From assembly GCA_945907755.1 (NCBI GenBank), contig CAMDTN010000004.1:20873-84872 (forward strand): 64,000 bases of DNA, written 5' to 3'. The stretch's first letter is position 1; each line of letters begins with the position of its first letter. Below are positions 7,975 to 46,304 of this stretch, in pieces. The notes beneath the pieces are model-generated. The model saw nothing but the letters and a program-made list of their open reading frames with translations. It had not been told where the DNA came from and made no database searches. The position numbers and the translations under genes were made by a program. The stretch comes from Singulisphaera sp. GP187 (GTDB lineage Bacteria > Planctomycetota > GCA-002687715).

Positions 7975-9020
7975 TCAGTGGCCTCCACAGCGGTCTGAGC
8001 ATTTCGCAATGTGAGTTGCAGTGTGGTGTGCCCATCGTGATGCGTGACGGCCACAGCGCCTCCGCAATCTTCAGCGGTTTTTACCAAGAGGGCCCAAGCC
8101 AAGGCGCGGGGTGGGCGAACATCACGCAGGAGCGCTGCAAGGGACTGCGCGCGTTGCGCGAGCGGCTTCAATAAATCGCTTTCTTCTTGCAGTACCAAGA
8201 CCACTCCATGGGCGGTGTGCTGCGCGGTAAGCGTCAATTCGCGGACGCGTGTGCGCTCGTCGCAAAAAGAGCTGAACAACAGTTTGAGGGCGGTGTCCAG
8301 CACTGCAGCATCGGCACAGACCATGAGCTTCGAGCCGTCTATATGCCATTCGATGGGGAAAGCCTCCGCGTCCGCTTCGCGTCGGCGTGCGGCAAGCAGC
8401 GCCGCCAAGTCTGCATATGCAGCGTTTGCTACGGGCTGCGTGCCCAGCAAGGCCATGGCATGCAACATTGTTGCCAGACGCTGCAATTCGTTGCGGACTT
8501 GTTTGAGCGGCCGTGCAGCGGGGTCTTCGGGGCCATGGCCCTGTGCAAGCAGCTGTAGCCACCCATCAGCACCAGCCAACGGATTTTTAAGTCCGTGGGC
8601 AAGGGAACGCAATAAATCGCCGGTGGAAGCATCTGGAACCAAAGTTCCGTGGGGAGGCCCGGCAGAAGCGCGACGTGGACCGCCACGGGGCGTCAGGCTT
8701 GGGCGGAGCGCGTCCAAAATATCCGCCGGGAAATAGGGGATGTCAAACCGTTGCCGCAGCTCGGGGAACTCAACTGAGCGCTGGCGACCGAGTACGAAAA
8801 TAGGGTGGTCGCGGAGGAATCCGGCGCTGCCTAATCCAGCCGCACTCTCTTCGTGCAGGATGAAAACCAGCGGCTCCGTGAATCCCCCTGCATGGGTAAG
8901 TTCGTCTCGCAACCCGTCCCCTGCGGAAACGGCTAACAGTTCGTCGACTTCACTGCGCAGGAAGGACGCCAGAGCATCTCGGTCTGGGCCTGGCGGATGA
9001 ATCAGGATGATGCTGGACAA
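7971..9020 (-). CDS. Histidine-kinase-like protein with degenerate receiver and degenerate ATPase domain
   Basis: HisKA-type H-box LLRSLAHGLKNPLAGADGWLQLL. The C-terminal region is collinear with HATPase_c, but I cannot find the N-box Asn or the G1/G2 boxes. The N-terminal REC-like fold has FILHEES at the acceptor position. There is a 4-nt overlap with the downstream GGDEF gene. Confidence 0.65.
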   Translation of the reverse strand: MSSIILIHPPGPDRDALASFLRSEVDELLAVSAGDGLRDELTHAGGFTEPLVFILHEESAAGLGSAGFLRDHPIFVLGRQRSVEFPELRQRFDIPYFPADILDALRPSLTPRGGPRRASAGPPHGTLVPDASTGDLLRSLAHGLKNPLAGADGWLQLLAQGHGPEDPAARPLKQVRNELQRLATMLHAMALLGTQPVANAAYADLAALLAARRREADAEAFPIEWHIDGSKLMVCADAAVLDTALKLLFSSFCDERTRVRELTLTAQHTAHGVVLVLQEESDLLKPLAQRAQSLAALLRDVRPPRALAWALLVKTAEDCGGAVAVTHHDGHTTLQLTLRNAQTAVEATE

Positions 9021-11195: not shown

Positions 11196-12235
11196 GCGGG
11201 GCAACCATCAGAGAATTGACTCCCGAGCGCGAGGGTGCGTGGCAAGCCTATGTCTTGGCGCACCCACACGGGACTCTCTTTCACGACCTCGCGTGGCGCC
11301 ACATGCTGCGCAAGACTTTCCGTCATCGGTGCTGCTACCTCATGGCCGAACAAGATGGCCAGATACGCGGCGTGCTGCCCTTGGTGATCATTCGCTCGAT
11401 TTTTTTCGGCACTTCCGTTGTCAGTGTGCCCTTTGGCGTCTACGGGGGCGTGCTTGCCGATGATGCGGCCAGCACCGTAGCCTTGTGCGACGCTGCAACG
11501 GAGGCTGCCGCAGATGCGGGCGCCGCCTACGTGGAATTGCGCCATTTGCATTTGCCGCCCGCATGCGACCTCCCGGAATCCGGGCTGCACTGCACCTTCA
11601 TCAAAGACTTGCCGAATACCGTCGAGGAAGTGCTGCCCAGCATCCCACGAAAGGCGAGGGCAGAAGTGCGCAAGGCACGCACTGCGGGAGTGCTGACGGT
11701 CAATACCAAGCCGGTGACCATCCCAGAGTTCCACTCGCTCTTCGCTGAAAACAAGCGCAAGCTCGGTTCGCCGATCTTTCCGAAGTCGATGTTTTGGAAC
11801 TTGCACGAAGCCTTGCCGGGCCGCGTGCACACCATGGCTGTAGAAAAAGATGGCCGCGCCATCGCAGTACTGATGAGCTTTCTGTGGCGCGACACGTTTA
11901 TGGCCTATTACTCCGGCGCTGATGACACAGCGAATGCTTCATCTGCCAACAACCTGCTCTACGCGGCGGCAATGGAAGAGGCCGTGCGGCTGGGTGCGAA
12001 GACATTTGACTTCGGTCGTTCGCGGCGCGACACAGGGCCCTACGCCTTCAAGGTGAATCAAGGATTCGAACCGCTCCCGCTGCACTACCAGTTTGTCACC
12101 AAGCGTGGTGCGCGGCTGCCCTCGATCAACGCTAGCAACCCGCGTTATGACTTTGCCAAGAAGCTGTTCCGCTCGCTCCCAATGATGGCAGCGGAAAAGC
12201 TGGGTTCGTTTGTTGCAAAGCGCATGCCAGTGTGA
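11192..12235 (+). CDS. FemAB-like / GNAT (Acetyltransf_6-type) protein
   Basis: The 347-aa length and N-terminal pattern (W..YV..HP.GTLFH...W) resemble the FemAB-related proteins found in exopolysaccharide loci. GTGA overlap with the upstream stop. Assignment is from memory. Confidence 0.65.
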   Translation: MSGATIRELTPEREGAWQAYVLAHPHGTLFHDLAWRHMLRKTFRHRCCYLMAEQDGQIRGVLPLVIIRSIFFGTSVVSVPFGVYGGVLADDAASTVALCDAATEAAADAGAAYVELRHLHLPPACDLPESGLHCTFIKDLPNTVEEVLPSIPRKARAEVRKARTAGVLTVNTKPVTIPEFHSLFAENKRKLGSPIFPKSMFWNLHEALPGRVHTMAVEKDGRAIAVLMSFLWRDTFMAYYSGADDTANASSANNLLYAAAMEEAVRLGAKTFDFGRSRRDTGPYAFKVNQGFEPLPLHYQFVTKRGARLPSINASNPRYDFAKKLFRSLPMMAAEKLGSFVAKRMPV

Positions 12236-12251
12236 CATCGCCGGGTAACCT

Positions 12252-13640
12252 GTGCCCATGAGTGAGGCGAGTTTCTTGCTGGCGTTGCGCGCTGCCGTCG
12301 GGTCATCCTTGGCCACCGACGAAGATTCGTTGCAACGAGCTTCCAGCGACTGGTCCGGCCGCAAGGGTTCGTGCAGCGCGGTTGTGTGCGTGCGCTCCGA
12401 GGCTGATGTCGTCGCGGTGCTCACGCTTGCCGCAGCGCACCAATTTGCGGTCGTGCCGCGTGGCGCCGCAACTTCTGCCACCGGCGCGGCCGTACCGCTG
12501 AACGGTGCCGTGGTACTGGACTTCACTGGCATGAACCGCATCTTGGCGCTGGATGTTGCGGACATGGTTGCGGAGGTCGAACCGGGAGTGGTGACGCATC
12601 AACTGCAAGCGCGAGCCGAAGAAGTGGGTTTGCTGTATCCGCCGGACCCGGCGTCAAGCGATCAATGCACTCTGGGCGGCAACGTGGCCACCTGTGCTGG
12701 CGGTTTGCGCGCGGTGAAGTATGGCGTCACACGTGACTATGTGCTTGGCCTGCGCTGCGTATTGCCTGGAGGCGAAGTGTTTGAAACCGGCGGCCGCAAC
12801 CTGAAGGATGTCAGTGGCTACGATCTCACGCGCTTGTTGGTCGGATCCGAAGGCACGCTTGCAGTGATCACACGCATCACGCTGAAACTGGTGCCGCTGC
12901 CGCCCGGGCGCAGCACGCTGTTGGCATCTTTCGCCAATGACGACGGCGCGTTTGCTGCCGCAGATCTTCTCCTTGCGAATGGCGTGTGGCCACGAGCACT
13001 TGAGACGATGGATGCGCAAGCGCTGCGTCTCGCAGCGACAGCAGTAGGCGAGGCGGTGCACGACAGCGTGCGTTCGCGCTTGCTGGTTGAATTGGACGGC
13101 GAAGTAGGCGCCGTGGCCGAAACGGAAGCGCGCGTGCTGCGGCTTCTGACAGCACACGCAACGGCTGTAGACATGGCCAATACTGCGACGGCACATGCCC
13201 TTGTTTGGGCAGGGCGCCGTGCCATCTCCGCTGCGGTGCTGACCATCACCCCGGCGAAGCGCTCGGAGGACTTGGGCGTGCCACGAGGCCAACTGGCTGC
13301 AGCGGTGAGGGAATTGCGCGCCATCGGCAAGAACTACGGCATCGGCGTTCTTGTTTATGGTCATGCGGGCGATGCGAACTTGCACTGCAATTTCCTGTAC
13401 GACCCCATAGAAAACGGCAGTGCGAAGCGCTTGGAAGCCTGTGTTCAAGCCGCTTATGCAGCCGTGTTGCGGCGTGGTGGCACGCTGACAGGCGAGCACG
13501 GCGTGGGGTTGCGCAAGCGCGTTGCAGTTAGCGCAGCCCTTGGTCCGGTACGCTGCCGCCTGATGCGCGCGATCAAACATGCATTCGACCCCAATAACCT
13601 GCTGAACCCCGGCAAGGTGTTGCCCCCGGAGCAACCATGA
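12252..13640 (+). CDS. FAD-linked oxidase (GlcD / D-lactate dehydrogenase family)
   Basis: FAD_binding_4 pattern VVPRGAATSATGAAVP...VVLDFTGMNRIL...EPGVV and TLGGNVATCAGGLRAVKYGVTRDYVLGL. The C-terminal GEHGVG is present. ATG 12258 is an alternative start. Confidence 0.88.
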   Translation: MPMSEASFLLALRAAVGSSLATDEDSLQRASSDWSGRKGSCSAVVCVRSEADVVAVLTLAAAHQFAVVPRGAATSATGAAVPLNGAVVLDFTGMNRILALDVADMVAEVEPGVVTHQLQARAEEVGLLYPPDPASSDQCTLGGNVATCAGGLRAVKYGVTRDYVLGLRCVLPGGEVFETGGRNLKDVSGYDLTRLLVGSEGTLAVITRITLKLVPLPPGRSTLLASFANDDGAFAAADLLLANGVWPRALETMDAQALRLAATAVGEAVHDSVRSRLLVELDGEVGAVAETEARVLRLLTAHATAVDMANTATAHALVWAGRRAISAAVLTITPAKRSEDLGVPRGQLAAAVRELRAIGKNYGIGVLVYGHAGDANLHCNFLYDPIENGSAKRLEACVQAAYAAVLRRGGTLTGEHGVGLRKRVAVSAALGPVRCRLMRAIKHAFDPNNLLNPGKVLPPEQP

Positions 13641-14989
13641 AAGTCCTGCTTGCAGACGACGAACGCACAATCACAGTGCCGCTACGGGACGACCTGATAG
13701 ATGCAGGACATGATGTGACCGTGGTGGATCGTGGCGATACTGCCGTCGAGAAACTAGCGGCGGATCACTACGATGTGCTGATCACAGACATCAACATGCC
13801 CGGCGTGCGTGGTGACGAACTGCTGGTGAAAGCTACCGAGTTGCGCCCAGGGATCGCCGTGGTGATTGTCACAGGCTTCGGCACGGTGCAGTCCGCCGTG
13901 CAGGCCATGAAGAATGGCGCAGCGGACTATGTGCTGAAACCATTCGTGAATGAACAGATTGTGCTGCTCCTCGGGCGTATCGCGCACTTGAACGACTTAG
14001 AGGCGGAAAACCGCAACCTCCGCCATCAGATCACCGACCTGACGGGATTCGAGCATGTGGTTGGTTCCAGCGAACAGATGCAGCAAGTGTTCCGCACCAT
14101 CCGCACCGTTGCGCCGTCCGATTCCACTGTGCTGATCATGGGTGAGACGGGCACCGGCAAGGAGATTTTCGCGCGGGCACTTCACAATCTGTCGGGGCGT
14201 TCCAGTGGCCCTTTGGTGGCGATTTCCTGTGCCGCCATTCCCAGCACCTTGCTGGAAGACGAACTCTTTGGGCACGAGAAGGGTGCTTTCACGGACGCAC
14301 GCGAACGCAAGCTCGGACGCATCGAGCGCTCCAACGGCGGCACATTCTTCTTAGATGACATCGACGACATGCCACTCGCCACGCAAGTTAAACTGCTACG
14401 CGTGTTGCAAGAGCGCGAAGTGGAGCGCTTAGGCGGCGACCGCGTGTTGCACGTGAATATCCGCGTGGTTGCTGCCACCAAAGTCGATCTGCGCAGCATG
14501 GTGCGCGACGGGCGCTTTCGCGAGGATTTGTTCTACCGTCTGAATGTGGTGCCGATTCGTTTGCCGCCGCTGCGCGAGCGCGTGGGGGACGTACCTCTCT
14601 TAGTGCGGCATTTCATGCGCAAGTTTAGCCATGGTGAAAGCTATGTCGTGAAGGCCGATGTGATGGCCATGCTGGAACGCCATCATTGGCCCGGGAATGT
14701 GCGCGAACTCGAGCACTCGGTGGAACGCGCCATTGCCATGTCTGGTCCGGAACATGTGCTGCGTCGCGAACACATGTTGGACAAGGATCCGCTGCATCCA
14801 CATTCGACACCTGCGCCCACGAATATTGATTCGTTGAAAGTTGTGCTGGAGCGTGCGGAGCGGGATGCCGTCGTTCGGGCGTTGAATCTGTGTGACAGCA
14901 AGTCGCAAGCTGCGGACGCACTTGGGATCAGCCGCAAATCGCTTTGGGACAAGTTGCGCTTGCACAGCATCGAGGACTCCAAGCCGTGA
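13637..14989 (+). CDS. Sigma-54-dependent response regulator (NtrC/AtoC family enhancer-binding protein)
   Basis: REC domain with DD pair and acceptor Asp (VLITDINMPG). AAA+ domain with Walker A GETGTGKE. The sigma-54 contact loop reads GAFTDA (canonical GAFTGA). A C-terminal Fis-type HTH (SKSQAADALGISRKSLWDKL) is present. ATGA overlap with the upstream gene. Confidence 0.93.
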   Translation: MKVLLADDERTITVPLRDDLIDAGHDVTVVDRGDTAVEKLAADHYDVLITDINMPGVRGDELLVKATELRPGIAVVIVTGFGTVQSAVQAMKNGAADYVLKPFVNEQIVLLLGRIAHLNDLEAENRNLRHQITDLTGFEHVVGSSEQMQQVFRTIRTVAPSDSTVLIMGETGTGKEIFARALHNLSGRSSGPLVAISCAAIPSTLLEDELFGHEKGAFTDARERKLGRIERSNGGTFFLDDIDDMPLATQVKLLRVLQEREVERLGGDRVLHVNIRVVAATKVDLRSMVRDGRFREDLFYRLNVVPIRLPPLRERVGDVPLLVRHFMRKFSHGESYVVKADVMAMLERHHWPGNVRELEHSVERAIAMSGPEHVLRREHMLDKDPLHPHSTPAPTNIDSLKVVLERAERDAVVRALNLCDSKSQAADALGISRKSLWDKLRLHSIEDSKP

Positions 14990-26875: not shown

Positions 26876-26923
26876 TCGGGCTCAGCATAGGTGCAGCGGG
26901 CCTCTCAACCAGCCTCGCAAAAC

Positions 26924-26959
26924 GTTACCGTTCGGTAACAAGTGCGCGTTTCGGTAACA
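26924..26959. promoter_or_regulatory. Candidate protein-binding site: 16-bp palindrome plus a third half-site
   Basis: GTTACCG-TT-CGGTAAC at 26924-26939. TTCGGTAACA is repeated exactly at 26931-26940 and 26950-26959. The site is 49 bp upstream of the nadE start and about 165-180 bp upstream of the sigma-54 promoter at 27104. Confidence 0.45.
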
Positions 26960-27103
26960 CTTTCCAACTTGAAAACGGCCTCACGCGACTACCCACAAGT
27001 GTCAGGAAAAGTAATCTGAACGGCCATAAATAGCATTGGCGCAATGGGATGCAGCAGACTCGCTCTCATTTATCAAGTTTTTCGGCCCCAATTTGACCCC
27101 ATT

Positions 27104-27119
27104 TGGTACGGGACTTGCT
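27104..27119 (+). promoter_or_regulatory. Sigma-54 (-24/-12) promoter
   Basis: TGGTACGGGACTTGCT versus the consensus TGGCACG-N4-TTGCW, with one mismatch and exact GG-N10-GC spacing. It is intergenic, 66 nt upstream of ATG 27185. Confidence 0.6.
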
Positions 27120-27184: not shown

Positions 27185-29122
27185 ATGCGCAAGACAGTGT
27201 TTGCAGCGGCGACGGTCCTCGCTCTCGCGATGATCGCCGAAATCGCGCTCGCCCACGGCGGCACCTATCAGGGCCCCGCAGGCGGCGGCACCCCGGGCTA
27301 TAGCGGCCCAATTGGGGGTGGAACCATTGGACCTCAGCCAGGTGGCACAACGCCTCCCTCGACGGGTGGCGCAACGCCGCCTCCCGCGGGTGGCGCAACG
27401 CCGCCCCCGAGCTCGGCACCCACGCCTCGCCCTGCGGCTCGCGGCACCGGCCCTGCCGGTGGTCGTGGCTTCGGCGGCTCCACGGGTGGCCGCGCGAAGG
27501 CCAAGGTCGAAGACCGCACCACCGATTGGGATTGGTGGTGGGATCTGAACGAAGAGCGCTTCTTGATGCTCAAGAACAAAGTTCGTTCACAGGAAGCCAG
27601 CTCGGATAACAAGGACACCTTCCTCGGTGGTTCCTTGGGCGGCGGTGCCTCTAAGGTGACCACCACTCAGATCCGCAAGGACATCCTCCCCAGCTTGCGT
27701 CTCGCACTGAAGGACCCCTACTACGACGCACGTGCAGGTGCCGTGATCGCGTTGGGCAAGGTCGGCGACAAGACGATGCCTGAAACCCTGAACGACCTCC
27801 GTGCGATGCTTGCTGACAAGGACAAAATCGTCCAAGAGTCCGCGTGCCTCGCGTTGGGCGTGCTCGGCAACAAGGAATCCTTGGCGGACCTGCTCGATGT
27901 AGCCAAGAACACCAAGACTGGCCAGAAGCTCGCAGGCAAGGAGGGCGCTGAAGTCCCGACTCGCATGCGCTCTTTCGCCGCTGTGTCCATCGGCCTGATC
28001 GGTGGCCGTGAAGGCTTCGGCGCTGGCGAGAACTACATCAAGGAACTGGTGACCATGGCTACCACCAAGGCCCCCAACCAAGATCTCCAGGTTGGCCCCG
28101 CGGTGGCGCTGCAAGTTGCGAAGTCGCAAGAAGCGGTGCCGGCGCTGATCGCCATGTACAAGGATGAAGATTTGGATAAGTGGGTGCGCGCACACGCCGG
28201 TGTGGCTCTGGGCAAGATTGGTGCCAAGGCCGCGATTCCTGAGCTGGTGAAGGGTTTGGATGACAAGGAGGGCTTCGTTGCCAACTCCGCCGCCATCTCC
28301 CTCGGCCTGCTCACGGACCCCAGCGACCGCGAGACCATCAACAAGCTCATCCGCTACGCCAAGAGCGCTCCTGAGCGTTCGACGCGCAACTTCTGCATGA
28401 TCGCGCTGGGCGAAATCGGCGATGCCAAGGGCAAGGCTCTCCTTCTGGAGAACCTGAGCAAGGGGCAAATGCACGATCGCACCTTCTCCGCACTGGCCCT
28501 CGGCATCATGGGCAACAAGTTCGAAGAAGGCCGCAGCGAATCCGGTCAGGCGCTGCTCGCGACCTACAAGGATCTGAAGAGCGACCAAGAGAAGTCGGCC
28601 ATGGCCATCGCCCTCGCATTGTGCGAGTACGAACCGGCCCGTGCTGCGCTGGCAGAAGACCTCGTGAAGGGTCAGGGCAACCAAGACCTGAAGGGTCACC
28701 TCTGCACCGCGCTGGGTCTGCTGAACCATGCGGACAGCATCCCCGCGATCCAGGAGCTGGCACGCCAGAAGGGCGACCAAGATCTGCGCAAGCGCGCTTC
28801 CATCGCACTCGGCCTGTTGAAGGACCCGGATGCAGTGGATGTGCTTGAGAAGGTCATTCGCGAGTCTGGCGCCAGCAAGGCGATCCTCGGCGCAGCCACT
28901 GTGGCCCTCGGCTACATCGGCGACCGCCGCGCTGTGCCTATCCTCGTCGCCATGGTCGAGAACAAGGCTGGTGAAGTGCAGGACGTGTCCCGCGCTTTCG
29001 CCACGGTTGCTCTCGGCTTCCTCGGTGACAAGGACGACATCCCATGCTTGTCCAAGATTCAGGAGAACTCCAACTACCTCGCTCAAACCGAGGCGTTGGC
29101 TGAGCTCTTGACCATCCTCTAG
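27185..29122 (+). CDS. Exported HEAT-repeat protein 1 (signal peptide, Gly/Pro-rich linker, Trp-rich motif, about 12 HEAT-like repeats)
   Basis: Signal peptide MRKTVFAAATVLALAMIAEIALA. The ATG is 9 nt after GGAG. A low-complexity GGTPG/TPPP region is followed by DWDWWWDLNEERF. Repeated A..ALG.iGd..a.p.L units (PBS-lyase HEAT-like) follow. Confidence 0.8.
   Translation: MRKTVFAAATVLALAMIAEIALAHGGTYQGPAGGGTPGYSGPIGGGTIGPQPGGTTPPSTGGATPPPAGGATPPPSSAPTPRPAARGTGPAGGRGFGGSTGGRAKAKVEDRTTDWDWWWDLNEERFLMLKNKVRSQEASSDNKDTFLGGSLGGGASKVTTTQIRKDILPSLRLALKDPYYDARAGAVIALGKVGDKTMPETLNDLRAMLADKDKIVQESACLALGVLGNKESLADLLDVAKNTKTGQKLAGKEGAEVPTRMRSFAAVSIGLIGGREGFGAGENYIKELVTMATTKAPNQDLQVGPAVALQVAKSQEAVPALIAMYKDEDLDKWVRAHAGVALGKIGAKAAIPELVKGLDDKEGFVANSAAISLGLLTDPSDRETINKLIRYAKSAPERSTRNFCMIALGEIGDAKGKALLLENLSKGQMHDRTFSALALGIMGNKFEEGRSESGQALLATYKDLKSDQEKSAMAIALALCEYEPARAALAEDLVKGQGNQDLKGHLCTALGLLNHADSIPAIQELARQKGDQDLRKRASIALGLLKDPDAVDVLEKVIRESGASKAILGAATVALGYIGDRRAVPILVAMVENKAGEVQDVSRAFATVALGFLGDKDDIPCLSKIQENSNYLAQTEALAELLTIL
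27364..27411 (+). repeat. Tandem 24-nt duplication inside the low-complexity linker of HEAT protein 1
   Basis: GGGTGGCGCAACGCCGCCTCCCGC followed by GGGTGGCGCAACGCCGCCCCCGAG. This encodes (T/A)GGATPPP twice. Confidence 0.85.
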
Positions 29123-29129
29123 TTCGGTC

Positions 29130-31022
29130 ATGAGCACCACACGGCATCCAACTGCAGCAATGCTCGGTTGGGTGCCGTGCTTCATTTTTCTGGTGACAAC
29201 GGCGCTGCTGCCAACAGTGTGCGCGCAAGATCCCTTTGGTTCGGCCTTCGGTGTTGCGTCTGGGTCTGGTTCCTATTCGGCACCGCCGGGCACTGCCCCG
29301 CCAATGGGCCAAGTCGATCCCGTGGGCGAACCCACAGACCCTGCGGCACCTGGAAGTGGCGCTGCAAGCGGAGCCCCTGTCGGCAAGACAAAATTTGGTG
29401 TGGCCGGCCGCGCGCGCGCGCGCTCGACTGCGCGCACGCCCACATGGCAACTGTGGTGGGGCATGAATGGCGAGCATTGGTTGCGCTCGCGTTCGCTCAC
29501 GCGTCAGCACGGGCTGGCTGGCTCCGTAGATGCTGCATTTTCCGCACTGCCGCGTTTCGAACCCATCGGACAGTCCCGCGCGCGCCGCGAGATTGTGCCG
29601 TTCCTCTTGCAACAACTGAACGCCGAATCACCAGCCATGCGCGCCTCCACGGTGATCGCGCTCGGGCGCATCTGCACTCACAAAGACAGCGCCGTGCAAT
29701 CGCGCGTGCGTTTGATGTTGACCGATCCCCAGTTGGATGTGCGTGCCGCGTGCCTCTTGGCGCTTGGTTTCATCGGATCAGAAGCGACGCTTCCAGAACT
29801 CATGGCCGTTGCGTTAGACGCCCCCTTCGGGCGCATGCTGCTGCACCAAAACAGAGAGATCCCAAATCAGTTGCGCTCGGTCGCGTGCATCGCACTGGGC
29901 ATGGTGTGCGCACGCAGCGGCAGCCCTTTGGCGACGAGTGCCACCCAGATGTTGCTGCGCATTGCTGCTGGCAACGAGCCTTCCGGAGACCTGAGAGGTT
30001 CCGCCATCTTGGCACTGGCTTTGTATTCGCCGCACAGTGCAGTGCCGCGGCTGATCGCGCTTGCGGGCGACACGGAACTCGAGCAGTCCTTGCGGGCTCA
30101 TGCCCTCACGACGCTGGGGCGCATCGGGGACCCGGCAGCAATCAAGCCTGTCGTTGCTGCTTTGCAGGATGAGCGCGGCCTCGTAGTCGCTGCTGCTGCA
30201 ACAGCTCTCGGCTTCCTCTGCAAACCTGACGATGACACTTCCTTAGCTGCGCTGCGCGCTGTAGCTGAAGGCAACGGCGACCGCCTCGCTGTGTCCGCCG
30301 CGATTCTCGCGTTGGGTGAATGTGGGCCAGCAGACACGCGCGAATTCTTGATGCAATTGCTGCAAGCTGATGCTCCATTCACCAGTGCTCACGCGGCACT
30401 CGCGTTGGGCGTGCATTGCAAGCGCTTGCCTCATGCGGCAACGGCCAGCGCCCTCACGGCAGCGTGGAACCGGTGCTCGAACTTGCAAGAAAAAGGCGCA
30501 TTCGGTGTGGCCTTGGCTATGGCGAAAGCTCCGGATGCAGCGCGGCTACTTGAAGCAGAGCTCAGCGCACGCTCTGTCGATCGTGAACTCGCAGCGTTTT
30601 TGAGCACAGCCTTAGGGATGCTGGGCGACCGACGCAGCGCCTTGGCTTTGCTGCCATGGATTTCACAAACCCGCGATCTGCACATGCGCGTGCGCGCCAC
30701 GCAAGGCGCGCTGATGCTGCACAGCGAGGAAGCTGTGCCGTTGTTGATTCAATTGCTGCCTGCAAGCCGCTCGTCCCAGGGATCATTCACCGCGACAGTG
30801 CATGCGCTGGGACTTAGCAGCGATGCGCGCGCGCTGCCCCCGTTGATCCAAGGTGCCGTCGATGAATCTGGCACGCTGCCCGAACTGTCCCGCGCAGCAG
30901 CCGTAGCTGCCTTGGGGATATTGGCTGACAAGGACCACGACTCGTTGCTGCTGGGTTTGCGCCGTGGGGCGCTGTATGGCGCGACAGGCGGCGCGTTGTC
31001 AGCACTGCTCAGAGTGCAGTAG
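29130..31022 (+). CDS. Exported HEAT-repeat protein 2 (paralogue of 27185-29122)
   Basis: Same architecture as protein 1: signal peptide (MLGWVPCFIFLVTTALLPTVCAQ), low-complexity region, Trp motif TWQLWWGMNGEHW, HEAT-like repeats and a similar C-terminal end. It starts 7 nt after the upstream stop. ATG 29160 is an alternative start. Confidence 0.78.
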   Translation: MSTTRHPTAAMLGWVPCFIFLVTTALLPTVCAQDPFGSAFGVASGSGSYSAPPGTAPPMGQVDPVGEPTDPAAPGSGAASGAPVGKTKFGVAGRARARSTARTPTWQLWWGMNGEHWLRSRSLTRQHGLAGSVDAAFSALPRFEPIGQSRARREIVPFLLQQLNAESPAMRASTVIALGRICTHKDSAVQSRVRLMLTDPQLDVRAACLLALGFIGSEATLPELMAVALDAPFGRMLLHQNREIPNQLRSVACIALGMVCARSGSPLATSATQMLLRIAAGNEPSGDLRGSAILALALYSPHSAVPRLIALAGDTELEQSLRAHALTTLGRIGDPAAIKPVVAALQDERGLVVAAAATALGFLCKPDDDTSLAALRAVAEGNGDRLAVSAAILALGECGPADTREFLMQLLQADAPFTSAHAALALGVHCKRLPHAATASALTAAWNRCSNLQEKGAFGVALAMAKAPDAARLLEAELSARSVDRELAAFLSTALGMLGDRRSALALLPWISQTRDLHMRVRATQGALMLHSEEAVPLLIQLLPASRSSQGSFTATVHALGLSSDARALPPLIQGAVDESGTLPELSRAAAVAALGILADKDHDSLLLGLRRGALYGATGGALSALLRVQ

Positions 31023-33113: not shown

Positions 33114-34547
33114 TTAGCCGCCACTCTTGGGCGCTTCGGGCTGTTCGGGCGCGGGAACGGTGATGCGCAACTCACCCACGACCATAGCGCTCGGGTCAGT
33201 GGGGTTGTCGTCGGAGAACCCCAGCATGTAATCAAGGCTGCGCTCAACCTTGGCTTCAAGAACTTCCTTGTCGTTGACAAATACCTTCACCGGCTTGTCC
33301 AAATCCAGCATGCGGTCGTTCAGATACAAACGGCATGCCTGTAGGTTCTGGCTCTTAATGCGTACGGCGTTGGCAGCACGGTCCAATTCAGCGGACACGA
33401 CCACGCTGAGCCCGGCTTCTTTGTCAGCATCACCGCGATCGATCACCAACCACGCAGTACGGCGATAACGGCTGAGGTCGTCAGTGACATACGCGAGGGA
33501 ATCAGGGAAGGGTTTACGCTGCCGCGCCGCAAAGAAAGCAAGTATCTCAGCACTAGCGTCGACCACAGGGTCCACCTTCTGCGAACCTAACGCTGCCTTG
33601 ACTTTACCGGGATCTAACGCCGGAAACGTCTTCAACTCGAGGTCTAATGCATTCGCGGCCTTCAGGGCATCCAACTGGGTGCGCAGCGTCTTGCCGTCCT
33701 CGGATGCGAACAATTGATCCTCGCGGCTCACGATCATAATGCCCGCTTGGCTCTTCAAGTTCACCAAAAAGTTCTGCGCTTTGGGGCTCGCATTGCGCAC
33801 CGCCACCGCCGCAAACAATTTTGGTTGCAGCGACGCGAGGTCCAATCCTGCACGGCCCCCTTCACCGCAGCCTTCCAAGAAGATTCGAGTGGTGTCGATG
33901 TTGCAGAGCTTCAGCGCTTCGCTGATGCACTTGGCGATGCCGAAGTAATGCACCGGCCCATACCAGTCCACGCGCATTTGGTCGCTGGCTTTCTTGCCCA
34001 CGGTGCGCTCACCGATGGATGGAGCGATGATCACAAACTGGTCGCGCAGCTCGCGCAGTTCTTTGTCGTTGCGCAGCAAGACTTCGTTCAGGTACTTCTC
34101 GCCGTTGCTGCCTTTGTCGTGGAGCGCAACAATCAAAGGCCAAGTCTTACGGCCGTCATACAGCGGCGGCACATACAAAGTGAAATCGAAACCGATTTCC
34201 TTGCCGCGCTCTGCATGGTCCGCACGCAGATTGCGCGCGCGCCCGCAGCCGTCAGGTTTCTGCACTTTGCCCTTTGCATTCACCCGCGCAAATACGTCCA
34301 CCCAAGAATCCACATGGCGCAGGATGTCTTCGCCCTTGTGGGCCTCGCGCACTTTTTCGATGGCGAGCTTCTGGGCGTCACGGGCCTTGTCCAAGGCCTT
34401 CTCTGCTTTTGCCCCAACCCCACCCTTGGCACCGCGCACATCGCTCACAACCCCAGCCAACGTCTCACGCTCCGCTTCGGTCAACCCGGGCTGCTGCGCG
34501 CACACGACGGGCAACAACATGACCAAACACAACATCGCGATTTTCAT
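33114..34547 (-). CDS. Secreted alpha/beta-hydrolase-like protein (esterase/PHB-depolymerase fold) apparently lacking the nucleophile Ser
   Basis: Signal peptide MKIAMLCLVMLLPVVCAQQ. YVPPLYDGRKTWPLIVALHDKGSNG resembles esterase N-terminal motifs. The nucleophile elbow reads FLEGCGEGG (Gly where GxSxGG has Ser). A C-terminal extension of about 200 aa follows. Confidence 0.55.
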   Translation of the reverse strand: MKIAMLCLVMLLPVVCAQQPGLTEAERETLAGVVSDVRGAKGGVGAKAEKALDKARDAQKLAIEKVREAHKGEDILRHVDSWVDVFARVNAKGKVQKPDGCGRARNLRADHAERGKEIGFDFTLYVPPLYDGRKTWPLIVALHDKGSNGEKYLNEVLLRNDKELRELRDQFVIIAPSIGERTVGKKASDQMRVDWYGPVHYFGIAKCISEALKLCNIDTTRIFLEGCGEGGRAGLDLASLQPKLFAAVAVRNASPKAQNFLVNLKSQAGIMIVSREDQLFASEDGKTLRTQLDALKAANALDLELKTFPALDPGKVKAALGSQKVDPVVDASAEILAFFAARQRKPFPDSLAYVTDDLSRYRRTAWLVIDRGDADKEAGLSVVVSAELDRAANAVRIKSQNLQACRLYLNDRMLDLDKPVKVFVNDKEVLEAKVERSLDYMLGFSDDNPTDPSAMVVGELRITVPAPEQPEAPKSGG

Positions 34548-41281: not shown

Positions 41282-41860
41282 ATGCAATGGAACACCCGAG
41301 GCACGATACGCATCGAAGTGTTGGCAATATTGCTGCTCACATCGGTTGCTGCCTTGCTGCTGTGGCCGGAGCGGGCTGGCTTCGCTGTCGCTCAGCGCGA
41401 TGCCGCTGCGATAGCGCAACTGCGCGCGCTGCGGGCCACGGTCTTGCAGCACCATGCCCGAACCGGCCGTTATCCCATAGCAAGCGAGCTCACTGACTTG
41501 CCCAGCGGTGTGCGCTTCGAGCGCAACAGCGACTCGCTTGCAGCTGACGGCTACATTTTCAAGCTGTGGATCCCCTCCGAATTGGGAGGCGCCACCGGCA
41601 ATGCGGCGCAACGCTCTGCCAACCGCGGCGAACAAACTTGCGCCCTGATGGCATGGCCGCAGACGCGCGCGCCAGGCATGGGGCGGATCTTTGCCTGGAT
41701 TCCTGATGAGACATGGGCCGTGGACAACCTGAACACGCCGTATGTCGGCAATGGCGACGCACCCCCTCCGACACTCTTGGGTGGACGATTGGCCGGGCGT
41801 GCGCTTGGGCTGCCCATCCGTTGGGCCGATCGATTGCCTTGGCAACGCGTGGAGTTGTAG
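41282..41860 (+). CDS. Pilin/pseudopilin-like protein with a non-canonical class III signal
   Basis: MQWNTRG|TIRIEVLAILLLTSVAALLLWP has Gly, then Glu at +5, then a hydrophobic helix as in prepilins. Thr replaces the usual Phe/Met at +1. 192 aa. Confidence 0.5.
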   Translation: MQWNTRGTIRIEVLAILLLTSVAALLLWPERAGFAVAQRDAAAIAQLRALRATVLQHHARTGRYPIASELTDLPSGVRFERNSDSLAADGYIFKLWIPSELGGATGNAAQRSANRGEQTCALMAWPQTRAPGMGRIFAWIPDETWAVDNLNTPYVGNGDAPPPTLLGGRLAGRALGLPIRWADRLPWQRVEL

Positions 41861-41862
41861 GC

Positions 41863-43275
41863 TCAGCCTTCCTTGCGCGCGGCGAGATCCAACAAACGCA
41901 ACTGCTGTTCACACAGTGTCGGAAACCGCTTGTGCGCTTGCAGCACCGCTGCGCGCGCTTCGGATCCATCGATGGCACCGAGCACCCCGATCAAGAACGC
42001 AGCGCGTGCTTCGTCGGATGTAGCGCTCAATCGTTGGGCAACGGCGGGCACCATCGTGCTGTTGTTGCCGCTGCAAACAGGCGCAATTTGCCCAGGGTGC
42101 GAGAGGGTGCTGTCTAACAGCGCCGCGAATAGTGCATCCGTGGGCACCCCGCCTCGTGCGGCCAATCCGCTCACCACGGCTTCAGCATCACCGGGCCGGT
42201 GCTCTGCAACCAGCGCGCCTACTCTCTCGATGTCAGATGCGTTGCCAGCCGCCGCAATCACTTGGAGTGCCAAGAGTCTCTTCGTGCTCGCCGGGGCCCC
42301 AGAGGTCAGCCCCTCGCGTGCATGCTGCAACACCTCCGCGTCGCCAAGCAGCGCTAGTGTGCTCAGGACCAGCCCTTCGAGGCTTGGCGGCACCTCACCG
42401 CGGAATTGACGGAGCCGTGGGATGTAGCTGCTGAGCCGCAAGTCGACCATCGCTTCTAAGGCTGCATGCAGCTCTGGCATCAAGCGCGCATCTAGCCCTT
42501 GGGCGTAAAACCCGTCAGGTGCTGGGCGGCCGAGGCGGCCAAGAGCGTGCGCAGCGCGAACGCGAACGCCTAACTCTTCATCCTGTAGCAATTCCACCAA
42601 CCGTGGCAGGAATGACTTCAATTGCAGCCTCGCGACATAATCAATCGCGTCGGCGCGCACGGTCGCAATGGAGTCCTTTAAGGCTCGATCGAGAATCAAC
42701 GGCGTTTCAGGCCCACCGCAGGCCAGCGCCGCATCCAAGATGATCAAACGCGTTTGCGTCCCCGCATTGGGATGGTCGCGGTTGATCTCGTCATAAAACT
42801 TGCACAGCAGTGGAACGAATGCAGGATCGCGCTGAGTGCGCGCAACAATCGGGCCCTTTGAGCGCACTTCGAAGTCTGGGTGCTGGAAGATCTCTTTGCT
42901 TGGGCCGACAAAATCAGCGCTGCGCACCAGGGCAAATATGTCCGCGAAGGCGCTCGCTTCGTACTTCGAAATGTTGGTTCGCCCTGCCCACGCGTTCAAC
43001 ACAGCGCGACGGGTCGATTCCTCGTTGCACAGCAGTGCGATGTCGTCCTTCATGCCACCAATCAGTCCGGCTGCGCCGGACGTGAGCTGATCGAGGCACT
43101 GCTGCACCGCGCGCTGGCGCTCGGCCGGAGCGGCAAACAAATGAAATGACGGCGTGCGGCCGCTCGGTAGTGTTCGAACTGGCGGAGCCTCGGGTTCGCC
43201 GCGAAAAGCGAGGAATGCGTAAGCCAGCCCAATGGCTACCAAGATGACCAGCAAGATGCGCGCGAGTTGTGGCAT
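41863..43275 (-). CDS. Membrane-anchored HEAT-like repeat protein
   Basis: N-terminal TM ILLVILVAIGLAYAFLAF. HEAT-like units such as LQDEELGVRVRAAHALGRLG. It starts 3 nt after the upstream stop. Confidence 0.65.
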   Translation of the reverse strand: MPQLARILLVILVAIGLAYAFLAFRGEPEAPPVRTLPSGRTPSFHLFAAPAERQRAVQQCLDQLTSGAAGLIGGMKDDIALLCNEESTRRAVLNAWAGRTNISKYEASAFADIFALVRSADFVGPSKEIFQHPDFEVRSKGPIVARTQRDPAFVPLLCKFYDEINRDHPNAGTQTRLIILDAALACGGPETPLILDRALKDSIATVRADAIDYVARLQLKSFLPRLVELLQDEELGVRVRAAHALGRLGRPAPDGFYAQGLDARLMPELHAALEAMVDLRLSSYIPRLRQFRGEVPPSLEGLVLSTLALLGDAEVLQHAREGLTSGAPASTKRLLALQVIAAAGNASDIERVGALVAEHRPGDAEAVVSGLAARGGVPTDALFAALLDSTLSHPGQIAPVCSGNNSTMVPAVAQRLSATSDEARAAFLIGVLGAIDGSEARAAVLQAHKRFPTLCEQQLRLLDLAARKEG

Positions 43276-43278
43276 CGC

Positions 43279-44499
43279 TCACCCTCCTCGTTGTGCGTTG
43301 CGTGCAGCGCGCCGCAGCGCTTCGACGCTCAGGAATGCAGGCGTCAATAGTCGATTGAGCAGTTCCACGCGGGCATTCTCCTCCGGCAGCAAGCGCATCT
43401 GAGCGAGCACTCGTTCGAGGACTTCGCGGCCTCTCAAGCCATCCACGCGCGCAATGGCTGTCAAGGTGGCGTCGAGAATATCGCGTTGCGGCAACAGCGC
43501 CACAAGTGCATCCAGACTTTCTGGGCCCGCCAGTTTGCCCACAGCTTCAACGCGTGCGCTGCGTTCAGCGCGCTCAGCGCTTGCCGGAATGTCCAGTAAT
43601 TTCGCGACGCTCGCTTCGCTGCCAAGGTCGCCTAGCAAAAGCGCGGATTCTTGACGGAGGTGCCCAGCCGTAGCCCCGAGCAGTGCCTCCAATGCCGAGC
43701 GTCCGCGAGCCGCGAAGCGCGCTGCAAATGCGCCCAAGAACTCTGGCTGCCTTGATGCGTGCGCGCGCAAAGTGCGCTCTAAGAGCCGCACCCAAGCGTC
43801 GCGCTCGTCACCTTCCTTGACTGTAGTTTCTGTTCCGTAGCAGACACCCAACACGCTCTTGCGAATACGCTGCGACAAAGCCGTTGCAATGTGGCGGTCT
43901 TCGAGCGGCAAAGATGCCCCGGCCCGATGGACGGTGCCTGCGTCTTCCCACTGCAGGCAGACCGCGTTCATCTCGCTCAGTCGGCACAACTCGCGAAGTC
44001 CTGCTCGCTGTGCGAAAGTCGAAGTGGAGCGCACGCCGCTGAGGGAAAGTTCGCGCAGAGTTTCGTGGAGCTGCGGACCGTTGGGCTGCGCCGCAAGGCG
44101 CAGGGTGCTTTCGACCAGCACTGGTCCGATCACTGAATCGTCAGCAGTGAGATCGATCAAGTCCACTGCTGCGAAAACACTCGACTTCGGATCGCCCTTG
44201 AGGAACAGCAGCTTGGACAATTCTGGGTACGCGGCGCCGCGCGTGCCCAAGCCGCCCACGCGCACTTCACTCAGCTTGCCGCCCTTGAAACAGCGCTCGA
44301 CCTTGAAGACAGTCAACTGAACACTGGCGGACACCAGGCGATCGCTTACCCAGCGCCCCTGCACGATGACATCGGAGCGGTCGAGCAGCGCTCCGCACAG
44401 CCAAGGCTTGGTTTGGCCCCATGCGGCTACGACACAACAAAGCAGCATTATGCAAACCCGCATGAGAGGCCATTCTATGCCTCCCAACCGGCTCGCCAC
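43279..44499 (-). CDS. Hypothetical secreted protein with a C-terminal alpha-helical (HEAT-like) region
   Basis: Signal peptide MRVCIMLLCCVVAAWGQ. The start is GTG 44499 or ATG 44463. I recognise no domain. Confidence 0.55.
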   Translation of the reverse strand: MASRLGGIEWPLMRVCIMLLCCVVAAWGQTKPWLCGALLDRSDVIVQGRWVSDRLVSASVQLTVFKVERCFKGGKLSEVRVGGLGTRGAAYPELSKLLFLKGDPKSSVFAAVDLIDLTADDSVIGPVLVESTLRLAAQPNGPQLHETLRELSLSGVRSTSTFAQRAGLRELCRLSEMNAVCLQWEDAGTVHRAGASLPLEDRHIATALSQRIRKSVLGVCYGTETTVKEGDERDAWVRLLERTLRAHASRQPEFLGAFAARFAARGRSALEALLGATAGHLRQESALLLGDLGSEASVAKLLDIPASAERAERSARVEAVGKLAGPESLDALVALLPQRDILDATLTAIARVDGLRGREVLERVLAQMRLLPEENARVELLNRLLTPAFLSVEALRRAARNAQRGG

Positions 44500-44512
44500 A
44501 GGCGCGTTCTGC

Positions 44513-44707
44513 TCAGACAGCCCGAACTTGGTTCAAGATGGCGGCTTCAGCTGCGTCGCGCTCACGGATCTTGTGCTCATGGATTTCAACGAAGCGTTGC
44601 ACTTCGTCGATTGCACCCGTGAATAGGCGCTCGCCGTTGGCCGTAACGGTGTACATCTTCTTGCCGCGAACAGAGGCTACAAAAGTAATGCGCATGTGAT
44701 TCTCCAT
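44513..44707 (-). CDS. Small hypothetical protein (60-64 aa)
   Basis: First ORF after the sigma-54 promoter. Start ATG 44707, or ATG 44695 preceded by GGAG at 6-nt spacing. No signal peptide. Confidence 0.45.
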   Translation of the reverse strand: MENHMRITFVASVRGKKMYTVTANGERLFTGAIDEVQRFVEIHEHKIRERDAAEAAILNQVRAV

Positions 44708-44709
44708 GC

Positions 44710-44727
44710 GGCTCCGGGAAAGGAGCC
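44710..44727 (-). promoter_or_regulatory. Leader hairpin sequestering the Shine-Dalgarno of the small ORF
   Basis: Minus-strand RNA GGCUCC-UUUCCC-GGAGCC. The 3' arm contains GGAG 4 nt before ATG 44707. Confidence 0.35.
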
Positions 44728-44742
44728 AAGCCCTTGATATGA

Positions 44743-44758
44743 AGCAAACCCCGTGCCA
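44743..44758 (-). promoter_or_regulatory. Sigma-54 (-24/-12) promoter
   Basis: Minus strand reads TGGCACGGGGTTTGCT, a full match to TGGCACG-N4-TTGCW. It is intergenic, 35 nt upstream of ATG 44707. Confidence 0.65.
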
Positions 44759-44902
44759 CGGTGGTTGCCGTGGCGGCCCCTAATTGCGCAACTCTTGTAC
44801 TGCCAGCGAGTTGCACCGGTTTGCGCATCGAACGCAGTGTTGCCTCAGCGCGAAGCAGTTGACGCATGCGTGCACTCTGGATCTGCGGCGTGCCTGCAGG
44901 CG

Positions 44903-45394
44903 TCAAATCCGCTTGTGCGCGTAAGCCTCGAGCTCCGCAAAAACGCCGTTGGGCACGCCTCTACCAAGTTCCAAGTGCAACAACCTGCGCTGATCGGGAG
45001 TGTGGCCAAGGTGCACACGAACAGCGGGCGGTGCCATCTCGTCGGGGAGCGTCTCAGGCCACTCAACAAGTGCCAGCGATTCGGGCTCGTCCAGAGGTTC
45101 GAGCACGCCTTGATGCACCAATGCGGCGCTGGAACTCACTCGGTAGAGATCCATGTGATTGAAGACGAGCCGACCGCCTTCGTAGCGGTGGTGTAGTGCA
45201 AACGTCGGGGAACAGAGCTCACGAGGATCGGGGTGGCCCAAACCACGCAGCACGCCGCGCGCGAAAGTCGTCTTGCCTGCGCCCAACTCGCCGATGCAGT
45301 CAATGCGAGCTCCCGCTGGCAGTAGACGCCCGAAGATTTCGCCGATTGATTCGGTCTCTTCAGCGCAGGTGCAGATTAATTCAACGGTGGACAT
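44903..45394 (-). CDS. tsaE: tRNA threonylcarbamoyladenosine biosynthesis ATPase TsaE
   Basis: Start at MSTVELICT. P-loop GELGAGKTTFARG. Typical ~160 aa length. Confidence 0.85.
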   Translation of the reverse strand: MSTVELICTCAEETESIGEIFGRLLPAGARIDCIGELGAGKTTFARGVLRGLGHPDPRELCSPTFALHHRYEGGRLVFNHMDLYRVSSSAALVHQGVLEPLDEPESLALVEWPETLPDEMAPPAVRVHLGHTPDQRRLLHLELGRGVPNGVFAELEAYAHKRI

Positions 45395-46304
45395 GGCCTT
45401 GCTCGCAAACTGTCCAAGGAGCACCACCGCGCACGACGCGCCTTGCCCCAGCACTCATCACGCCCACACGGGTTAGCGGCGTTGCGTGAACCCAATGTGC
45501 TTGAAGTTTGGCCCATGCACTTGCCGGCAGCGTGAACAACAGTTCGAAATCTTCGCCCTCCGTGCAGGCACGCAGCACCGCGTCGCCGCCCGCTTGCAAG
45601 GCATCGTCATGCACGGGCACTAGGTCAGCATCCAGTTCGAAGCCACAGCCGCTGGCCTCTGCGAGACGAGTCAAGTCCAAGAGCAGTCCGTCAGAAACGT
45701 CGATCATGGCGCTGGGGCGCACGAGTTCTAGGATGGCCGCGATCTCATCGATACGCGGAGTGATGCGCAGATGGCGCCCAAGTCCGGAGCCTCCGAAACT
45801 GCCGGTCACAACAACAACATCCCCAGCTACGGCGCCACAACGCGTCAGCGCTTGCTCCGCCATCGGGCGCCCAAGCATGCTGACATTCACCACGATGCCG
45901 CCGTCATGAGTGGTGGTGTCGCCGCCAAAAAGCGGACACGAAAACAGTGCCCCAGCCGCGCGGGCGCCTTGAGTGATCTGTTGCGGCAGTGCGTCAGGGC
46001 AACCGCGTGGCAGCACCAACGCCAGCAGCATGCCCACGGGTGCGGCGCCCATCGCCGCGAGGTCCGACAAGTTGCGTGCCACGGCTTTGTGCCCAATCAA
46101 CACTGGATCGATGCCTGCAACAAAATGTGTTCCTTCGGCCACCGTGTCGCAGCACCAGACCAAGGGCTTCGTCTGTGGCGGCAGCACCGCCGCATCGTCC
46201 CCGAGCGGCACCAAGGCCGCGTTGGGTGGTTCCGTCCTGCGCAACCAAGCGTGAAAGCTGCGCTCATCCATGCGGGGGCGATAGTAGCCGCTCATCCGAA
46301 GCAT
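45381..46304 (-). CDS. thiL: Thiamine-monophosphate kinase
   Basis: AIR-synthase-like fold with LGDDAAVL, DLAAMGA and GEDFELLFT. Confidence 0.88.
   Translation of the reverse strand: MLRMSGYYRPRMDERSFHAWLRRTEPPNAALVPLGDDAAVLPPQTKPLVWCCDTVAEGTHFVAGIDPVLIGHKAVARNLSDLAAMGAAPVGMLLALVLPRGCPDALPQQITQGARAAGALFSCPLFGGDTTTHDGGIVVNVSMLGRPMAEQALTRCGAVAGDVVVVTGSFGGSGLGRHLRITPRIDEIAAILELVRPSAMIDVSDGLLLDLTRLAEASGCGFELDADLVPVHDDALQAGGDAVLRACTEGEDFELLFTLPASAWAKLQAHWVHATPLTRVGVMSAGARRVVRGGAPWTVCEQGHVHR

Follow-up and report, generated by a model that had tools for sequence, protein, structure and literature searches.

The gap between tsaE and a small open reading frame in an uncultured freshwater planctomycete, a lineage known from MAGs alone, contains a 16-nt element (positions 44743-44758, minus strand) that has the appearance of a sigma-54 promoter. 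The questions raised by this locus are whether the element functions as such a promoter, and whether it is under the same control as a look-alike element, TGGTACGGGACTTGCT (27104-27119, plus strand), which precedes the genes for two exported HEAT proteins (27185-29122 and 29130-31022). Both were addressed in the window, that is, the whole 64,000-nucleotide stretch of DNA analyzed, and in orthologous loci from other genomes. The window is a housekeeping stretch of the chromosome with a G+C content of about 61%, and carries dnaK, ABC transporter genes, glycosyltransferases, rpsA, inositol-1-phosphate synthase, nadE, dxr, rseP, the CCA-adding enzyme, thiL/thiE, ddl, fab genes, plsX and recA. An identical locus is present in several metagenome assemblies. 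The 470-aa protein encoded by the last gene downstream of the element is 64% identical to its counterpart in a Lake Baikal deep-water MAG (SIAO01000001), 46% to that in a Planctomycetia MAG and 28% to others.

Read on the minus strand, from 44758 to 44743, the element is TGGCACGGGGTTTGCT and agrees at 16 of 16 positions with the sigma-54 consensus TGGCACG-N4-TTGCW, as an earlier note on this DNA had claimed. The GG at 44757-44756 and the GC at 44745-44744, the latter being the end of a TTGC at 44747-44744, are spaced by exactly 10 nt, which is the spacing expected of a sigma-54 core. The element is intergenic, lying in the 195-nt gap that separates tsaE (44903-45454, minus strand, recognized by its Pfam TsaE match) from the small reading frame, and it is oriented towards a three-gene operon. 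The distance of 35 nt between the end of the core and the start of the small reading frame, as given in the same note, is correct for the ATG at 44707. The conserved start, however, is the in-frame ATG at 44695, which is 47 nt from the end of the core; the GG is 62 nt ahead of this codon, and a Shine-Dalgarno sequence, GGAG, is 7 nt ahead of it. Because the usual spacing is 11-13 nt, transcription is predicted to start at about 44732, give or take 2 nt.

The segment between the core and the conserved ATG (44696-44742, minus strand) would thus include a transcribed leader of about 37 nt with the Shine-Dalgarno sequence at 44705-44702, and it is conserved in the region of this sequence and the ATG. 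Just ahead of the Shine-Dalgarno sequence, the leader could fold into a GC-rich hairpin of 7 bp, GGCUCC-N6-GGAGCC (about 44709-44728, minus strand). Small hairpins occur in most orthologous leaders. Neither their sequence nor their position is kept across the loci, and the idea of a functional leader hairpin was dropped for this reason. Scans of the 195-nt gap for sigma-70-like promoters and for terminators gave nothing beyond chance. An Rfam scan of 44400-45000 at E<=1 returned no matches, so that no known leader RNA or riboswitch is located there.

The strength of the consensus match can be compared with chance expectation. The pattern TGGYACGNNNNTTGCW has two matches in the window against 0.13 expected, and none of 100 shuffled sequences gave two. 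An approximate sigma-54 weight matrix of our own was also applied, with a first-order Markov model as the null. Three window sites score 16 or more against 0.6 expected (P of about 0.02), and two score 17.5 or more against 0.17 expected (P of about 0.005). TGGCACGGGGTTTGCT itself scores 17.4-17.6 and is the best or second-best site in the window. When up to two mismatches are tolerated, the 25 matches found are at the chance level of 23.5, and therefore only the top-scoring sites stand out.

Even a top score is not sufficient proof of function, since an equally strong match, TGGCATGCGCTTTGCA (12214-12229, minus strand), is intragenic and antisense, within the final 20 nt of a GNAT/FemAB-like gene. 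This site is about 25 nt ahead of a gene pair (12252-14989) composed of a glcD-like gene and a gene for a sigma-54 enhancer-binding activator (bEBP). It is overlapped by a weaker plus-strand GG-N10-GC element, GGGTTCGTTTGTTGCA (12202-12217), which is aimed at the same pair. The region may represent no more than a chance or decoy match; alternatively, the bEBP may regulate its own synthesis from a promoter located here.

Conservation, rather than the consensus match, is decisive for a real site. Among 5.8 billion clusters, only four diverged relatives of the 470-aa protein were found. In these syntenic loci tsaE is followed by a gap of 200-240 nt and then by reading frames for a protein of 60-61 aa, one of about 390-406 aa and one of about 470 aa. 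Alignments of the gaps contain two conserved islands, GGC(A/C)CG-N4-TTGC and the ribosome-binding site with its ATGCG start, while the remainder has diverged. Further loci were reached through the small protein, using a metagenome scan with a 5-sequence alignment, a profile search and three context look-ups. Six of the loci collected (L001-L006) are identical copies of the window locus and are uninformative for footprinting. The loci share descent, and counts over them are not fully independent.

The motif GGC-N7-TTGC is present on the sense strand in all 10 distinct loci of the first set, with its GG 40-95 nt before the ATG of the small reading frame, against a background of 0.058 expected per 250 nt; on the antisense strand it is found in none of these 10 upstream regions. 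Two additional loci, L029 (TTGGCCCGCCAGTTGCTC) and L030 (TCGGCCTGCTGTTTGCGA), also have it; in L028, the most distant of the loci, the sequence is GGT-N7-TTGC (TCGGTACGCGAGTTGCTT). In a matrix of 12 distinct loci, all from uncultured Planctomycetota, GG and TTGC are kept in 12 of 12, C at -23 in 11, and G at -20 and T at -16 in nine each. Position -22 is A or C, with A in only five of the 12, and -21 is C or T; most relatives have GGCCC, not GGCAC, at -24. There is no constraint on the spacer positions -19 to -17 or on either flank. As far as these alignments go, conservation is confined to the bases that sigma-54 contacts.

The homologous site is the top matrix match of the whole locus (up to 21 kb) in L007/L012, L011 and L014. 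In L014, where the HEAT protein is only 28% identical, a textbook element, TTGGCATGCCTTTTGCAT, is found 25 nt before the small reading frame. Eight sites score at least 16 in 251 kb of non-redundant sequence, and seven of them belong to the two promoter families, that of 44743-44758 and that of 27104-27119. Another 28% relative, L013, has a homolog of the 470-aa protein in a rearranged context, with neither the small reading frame nor the promoter, and L015 is a partial match only. A different sigma-54-like sequence, TGGTATCGATGTTGCA, is identical in L008 (19479-19494, minus strand) and L011 (19563-19578, minus strand) and reads TGGTGTCGATGTTGCA in the window (33890-33905, plus strand). It is antisense inside a conserved, unassigned gene of about 480-500 aa, and its conservation is probably due to coding constraint.

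The DNA farther upstream contains a candidate enhancer. The only 6-mer common to the first five upstream regions is GTGCAC, located at -114, -114, -117, -136 and -136 from the core. It is a part of a dyad, TGCAC(C/G)-N4-(G/C)G(T/G)(G/C)CA, represented by TGCACCGAATGGTGCA, TGCACCGATTGGTGCA, TGCACCATTTGGTGCA and TGCACCAAATGGTGCA. The family form of this dyad is TGCACC-N4-GGTGCA. Written with its variable bases as TGCACS-N4-SGKSCA, the family dyad occurs at -114/-115 or -145/-148 from the GG in seven of 10 loci, and at -111/-115 in L029 and L030. Over all 12 loci, nine have the dyad in one of two distance ranges (-111 to -118, -145 to -148), and the window and L011 have a variant pair. About three helical turns separate the two positions.

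In the window, the proximal candidate site, GTGCACGCATGCGTCAA (44859-44875, minus strand), lies 118 nt upstream of the -24 GG and is unique in the window. The distal site, TTGACGCCTGCAGGCAC (44890-44906, minus strand), is its inverted partner and overlaps the stop codon of tsaE. The two sequences have a length of 17 nt, are 82% complementary and are 14 nt apart. The same layout is found in L011, the closest relative of the window, with TTGACGCTGTGGTTGC at -146 and GTGCACGCTATCGTCAA at -115. The upstream element of the window is a degenerate copy of the family dyad (GTGCAC-N4-GCGTCAA), and the inverted pair could double as the terminal hairpin of the tsaE transcript. Enhancers of sigma-54 promoters are typically found some 80-150 bp upstream. 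With its fixed distance of 110-150 nt, the dyad has the geometry typical of bEBP sites and may be regarded as a candidate enhancer. Its similarity to the 17-bp consensus of NtrC sites, TGCACC-N5-GGTGCA, is a resemblance only: the spacer of the family dyad is N4, making it one base shorter, the window copy GTGCACGCATGCGTCAA is degenerate, and an assignment as an NtrC-type site was rejected.

An activator of the required type is encoded in the same genome. The gene at 13637-14989 (plus strand) specifies an NtrC-type bEBP with a REC domain, a Sigma54_activat domain (1.3e-69), an AAA lid and an HTH_8 domain. Its sigma-54-contacting loop is GAFTDA, a variant of GAFTGA. DVU2106, an activator of D. 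vulgaris, has the same variant, which counts among the substitutions listed as compatible with activity (PMC4641369). The presence of this gene indicates that the organism uses sigma-54. The start of the bEBP gene overlaps the stop of an FAD-linked oxidase gene (12252-13640), suggesting that the two are cotranscribed. No histidine kinase gene adjoins the bEBP gene. About 5 kb away from it (6466-9020, minus strand), a GGDEF diguanylate cyclase of 502 aa is immediately followed by a protein containing HisKA, the two forming a c-di-GMP signaling pair.

A protein with an RpoN box was found neither in the window nor in the approximately 400 kb of DNA searched. The organism probably possesses rpoN all the same, because a bEBP is encoded in the window and because rpoN is documented in the phylum. 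An in-silico sigma-54 regulon of Pirellula sp. strain 1 (R. baltica) was reportedly described by Studholme and Dixon in 2004 (cited in PMC2754498). According to PMC2754498, rpoN of R. baltica is RB6491 and sigma-54 promoters are predicted for this organism; a PSSM survey of 2025 takes in Planctomycetota (PMC12316311). Both rpoN and many bEBPs are known in planctomycetes (PMC2754498, PMC12316311).

The genes behind the promoter are tightly packed, with 49 nt between genes 1 and 2 and 3 nt between genes 2 and 3. Their order recurs in all relatives, and a terminator scan across the operon gave no signal beyond chance. Gene 1 (44513-44695, minus strand) encodes a cytoplasmic protein of 60 aa, MRITFVASVRGKKMYTV... 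(MRITF...), with no hydrophobic segment and no match to a Pfam or NCBIfam family. It belongs to a planctomycete-only family of about 60 clusters in a profile search, all of them from planctomycete MAGs or metagenomes, in which G11, F25, G27, E31 and K42 are invariant. In its AF2 model (pLDDT 94), three antiparallel beta-strands are followed by a 31-residue helix, and a fold search of the model against the PDB gave nothing below E 0.5. The matches of gene 1 to long proteins in a phmmer search of 1.84 billion representatives were discarded as WD40 or repeat artefacts. A weak resemblance to ALF repeats (PF03752) was uninformative and was not taken as a sign of relationship.

In each of the two larger proteins, one hydrophobic segment at the N-terminus is combined with HEAT-like repeats, in keeping with the earlier description of the operon as a small reading frame followed by two exported alpha-helical-repeat proteins. 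Gene 2 (43279-44463, minus strand) encodes 394 aa from its conserved start, the ATG at 44463 (MRVC...), or 406 aa from a GTG at 44499, and has a signal-peptide-like N-terminus with hydrophobic residues 5-30. Matches to HEAT-like alphaRep and PBS-lyase repeats are confined to residues 266-363 (profile E 2e-34). Its HEAT_2 score of 17.8 bits is under the Pfam cut-off, and the N-terminal two thirds are without assignment. Gene 3 (41863-43275, minus strand) encodes the 470-aa protein, a HEAT alpha-solenoid (HEAT_2, PF13646, 39.5 bits against a cut-off of 27.7). A transmembrane helix at residues 2-24 and a disordered linker at 25-49 precede the all-alpha solenoid (model pLDDT 82.6), and a fold search with the model returned generic ARM/HEAT solenoids only.

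The surroundings of these genes differ between lineages. In distant relatives a gene for a TolC-family OEP lies between genes 2 and 3, and it is absent in the lineage of the window. In L028 (1344-3445), L029 (2704-3823) and L030 (2502-3700), an ECF sigma gene and one or two genes without a Pfam match are inserted between tsaE and the small reading frame; the latter are candidate anti-sigma factors. A convergent prepilin-like gene (41282-41860, plus strand), with G-TIRIE followed by a hydrophobic helix and with no Pfam match, ends 2 nt from gene 3. Its pairing with the gene for the 470-aa protein recurs in L013 (4424-5083, minus strand), where the identity is 28%.

The promoter at 27104 turns out to be a real site as well, as had been proposed. 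In the protein encoded at 27185-29122, strong HEAT_2/HEAT_PBS repeats accompany a signal-peptide-like N-terminus and a Gly/Pro-rich stretch, and the planctomycete family to which this protein belongs is much larger. Elements of the form GG-N10-G(C/A) precede its orthologs at five sampled sites, namely AGGCACGCGGGTTGCG in L016, GGGAATGGCAGTTGCT in L018, TGGCATCTCCTTTGCT and TGGCACCCTCTTTGCA in L019, and GGGCACGGCATTTGAT in L020. In L019, the unit is duplicated in tandem (sites 1401-1416 and 3893-3908), and each HEAT paralog keeps its own high-scoring sigma-54 core and its own CGTTAC(C/G) elements. The candidate upstream activator sites of the window promoter, CGTTACCGTTCGGTAAC and a second one, TTCGGTAACA, are at 26923-26959 (plus strand), 150-181 nt upstream of the -24 element. 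CGTTACC is found 104-181 nt upstream in all six regions of this type, the window included, in most cases with a GTAAC partner some 30 nt downstream of it; a shared 6- or 7-mer appeared in none of 300 shuffles. The IHF consensus is WATCAANNNNTTR. A near match to it, TATCAAGTTTTTC (27068-27080, plus strand), is located between CGTTACC and the -24 element, some 25-35 nt upstream of the latter.

That 44743-44758 is a chance match devoid of function is hardly credible. Some 0.2-0.6 matches of such quality are expected per 64 kb, and one of those in the window is intragenic; chance would not, however, account for conservation in register over 12 loci, in which the neighboring HEAT protein is down to 28% identity and the flanks have diverged. 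On the alignments at hand, this footprint effectively refutes the chance reading. The conserved 16-mer could instead be read by a different factor, for example an ECF sigma, or a repressor or activator accompanying a sigma-70-type promoter. The ECF sigma gene next to the small reading frame in L028-L030 and the fact that rpoN was not seen directly in the window plus about 400 kb lend this idea some support. The conserved bases are nevertheless those that sigma-54 contacts, with nothing kept at a -35/-10 spacing. The ECF-type pattern GGAAC-N15-18-CGT is upstream of the small reading frame in none of L028-L030, and the window, L007, L008 and L011 keep the element while missing the ECF gene at this locus. 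Sigma-70-like hexamers are not found in the gap, and the element is not palindromic, unlike most operators. Recognition by another factor is thus very improbable, although less so than a chance match.

The earlier note had gone further and suggested one regulon for the two look-alike promoters; in its stronger form, this proposal calls for a dedicated regulon in which the same activator would respond to one signal. The part of this proposal that stands is that both are conserved sigma-54 promoters ahead of exported HEAT-type proteins, and their 17-mers are indeed identical at 14 of 17 positions. The shared spacer, which had been offered as evidence, does not carry this weight. Only two of the four spacer bases agree, and the spacers of orthologs of 44743-44758 read GGGGT, GATAC, GACCT, GCGCT, GCCTT and others; as the spacer is not conserved among orthologs, the extra identity of the two promoters is not under selection. 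Nor are the proteins of one operon close paralogs of those of the other; they have a generic HEAT similarity only (E 0.002). Furthermore, CGTTACC is upstream in six of six regions of the 27104 type and in none of five of the 44743-44758 type, GTGCAC is found in all five of the latter and in none of the six former, and within the window neither motif occurs away from its own promoter. Because the upstream elements, CGTTACC...GGTAAC at 27104 and dyads of the TGCACC-N4-GGTGCA type at 44743-44758, are mutually exclusive, different activators are most likely, and the part of the proposal that calls for a shared dedicated activator does not hold up. L028 hints at a limited version of it. Its core is almost the same as that of the window promoter at 27104, with GTAACG/CGTTTACGG elements upstream and no TGCACC dyad (about 3730-3760 and 3846-3863), and an activator of the 27104 type may serve the operon in some lineages. 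The activator may thus have been swapped between lineages, with a wiring that differs from one to another. A single regulon under one activator is unlikely on balance; most likely, to judge from the sequences, both operons belong to a sigma-54 regulon in the broad sense and are switched by different activators.

By combining the motif, its conservation in 12 orthologous loci, the upstream dyad, the operon architecture and the bEBP gene of the same genome, we arrive at a probability of roughly 0.88 that 44743-44758 is a functional, enhancer-dependent sigma-54 promoter. The in-register conservation and the bEBP in the window thereby support the sigma-54 reading put forward earlier. From these data we infer the binding of sigma-54, the transcription start, an acting activator and a signal to which it responds, and it is possible to describe the likely course of events in some detail. 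The sigma-54 RNA polymerase would bind the -24 GG and the -12 TTGC and wait there as a closed complex. An AAA+ enhancer-binding activator would occupy the dyad elements about 115-150 nt upstream (44859-44906), reach the polymerase through looping of the DNA and use ATP to open the promoter. Transcription would then proceed from about 44732 through the three tightly packed genes and would end where the convergent prepilin-like gene meets the operon (41860/41863). The promoter at 27104 would likewise depend on sigma-54, with a different enhancer and so, probably, with a different activator.

Classical enhancer-dependent sigma-54 promoters include E. coli glnAp2, with its NtrC sites, and K. pneumoniae nifH, with its NifA upstream activator sites. 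The locus described here resembles them in its TGGCACG-N4-TTGC core, in the dyads about 100-150 bp upstream, in the presence of an NtrC-family bEBP in the genome and in the lack of -35/-10 hexamers. It differs from them in that exported HEAT-like proteins, not nitrogen genes, are controlled, and in that most relatives have GGCCC at -24. The general mechanism of such promoters is reviewed in PMC7057263. Compared with the in-silico sigma-54 regulons of Planctomycetota, the phylum, the kind of element and the evidence from motif and context are the same, whereas the organism here belongs to an uncultured freshwater clade and a cross-locus footprint and a candidate enhancer are added. The portions of PMC2754498 and PMC12316311 covered by term searches make no mention of this operon.

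Sigma-54 has been described as a controller of the bacterial exterior, for example in the control of lipoproteins by Rrp2-RpoN in Borrelia (Francke et al. 2011, PMC3162934). A sigma-54 promoter before envelope-targeted proteins, with a TolC-family gene in the operon of distant relatives, fits this theme. The locus differs in that its genes have no evident functional connection with exopolysaccharide, LPS, flagella or lipoprotein synthesis, and the products are uncharacterized alpha-solenoids and a novel 60-aa protein.

The result leaves the knowledge of sigma-54 itself unchanged, since the element is ordinary in kind and the phylum is already documented for sigma-54 and bEBPs. What is gained is a well-supported, testable sigma-54 promoter with a candidate enhancer in a lineage whose gene regulation is almost unstudied. 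The locus also illustrates that a bare consensus match is inadequate, as it is conservation that separates the real site from the intragenic look-alike in the same window. A dedicated HEAT regulon made up of the two operons has become less likely, and a small phylum-restricted operon is defined that can be followed in metatranscriptomes. The interest of the locus lies in a clean footprint and enhancer in an uncultured lineage, in a new small-protein family and in a possible planctomycete-specific envelope module.

The composition of the operon suggests an envelope-associated complex. On a more speculative note, a hitherto undescribed envelope module specific to planctomycetes may be under the control of this promoter, a proposal that we regard as tentative and somewhat doubtful. 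Its parts may be the 60-aa beta3-alpha protein, the periplasmic or secreted HEAT-like protein, an ancestral TolC-family protein and the anchored alpha-solenoid; in many lineages an ECF sigma gene and a prepilin-like gene adjoin the module. If the proposal is true, these proteins would form one trans-envelope apparatus, in which the small protein would serve as a cytoplasmic regulator or chaperone and which an NtrC-like activator would switch on via sigma-54. The operon would then represent a novel cell-surface system under sigma-54 control, in a phylum whose envelope is unusual.
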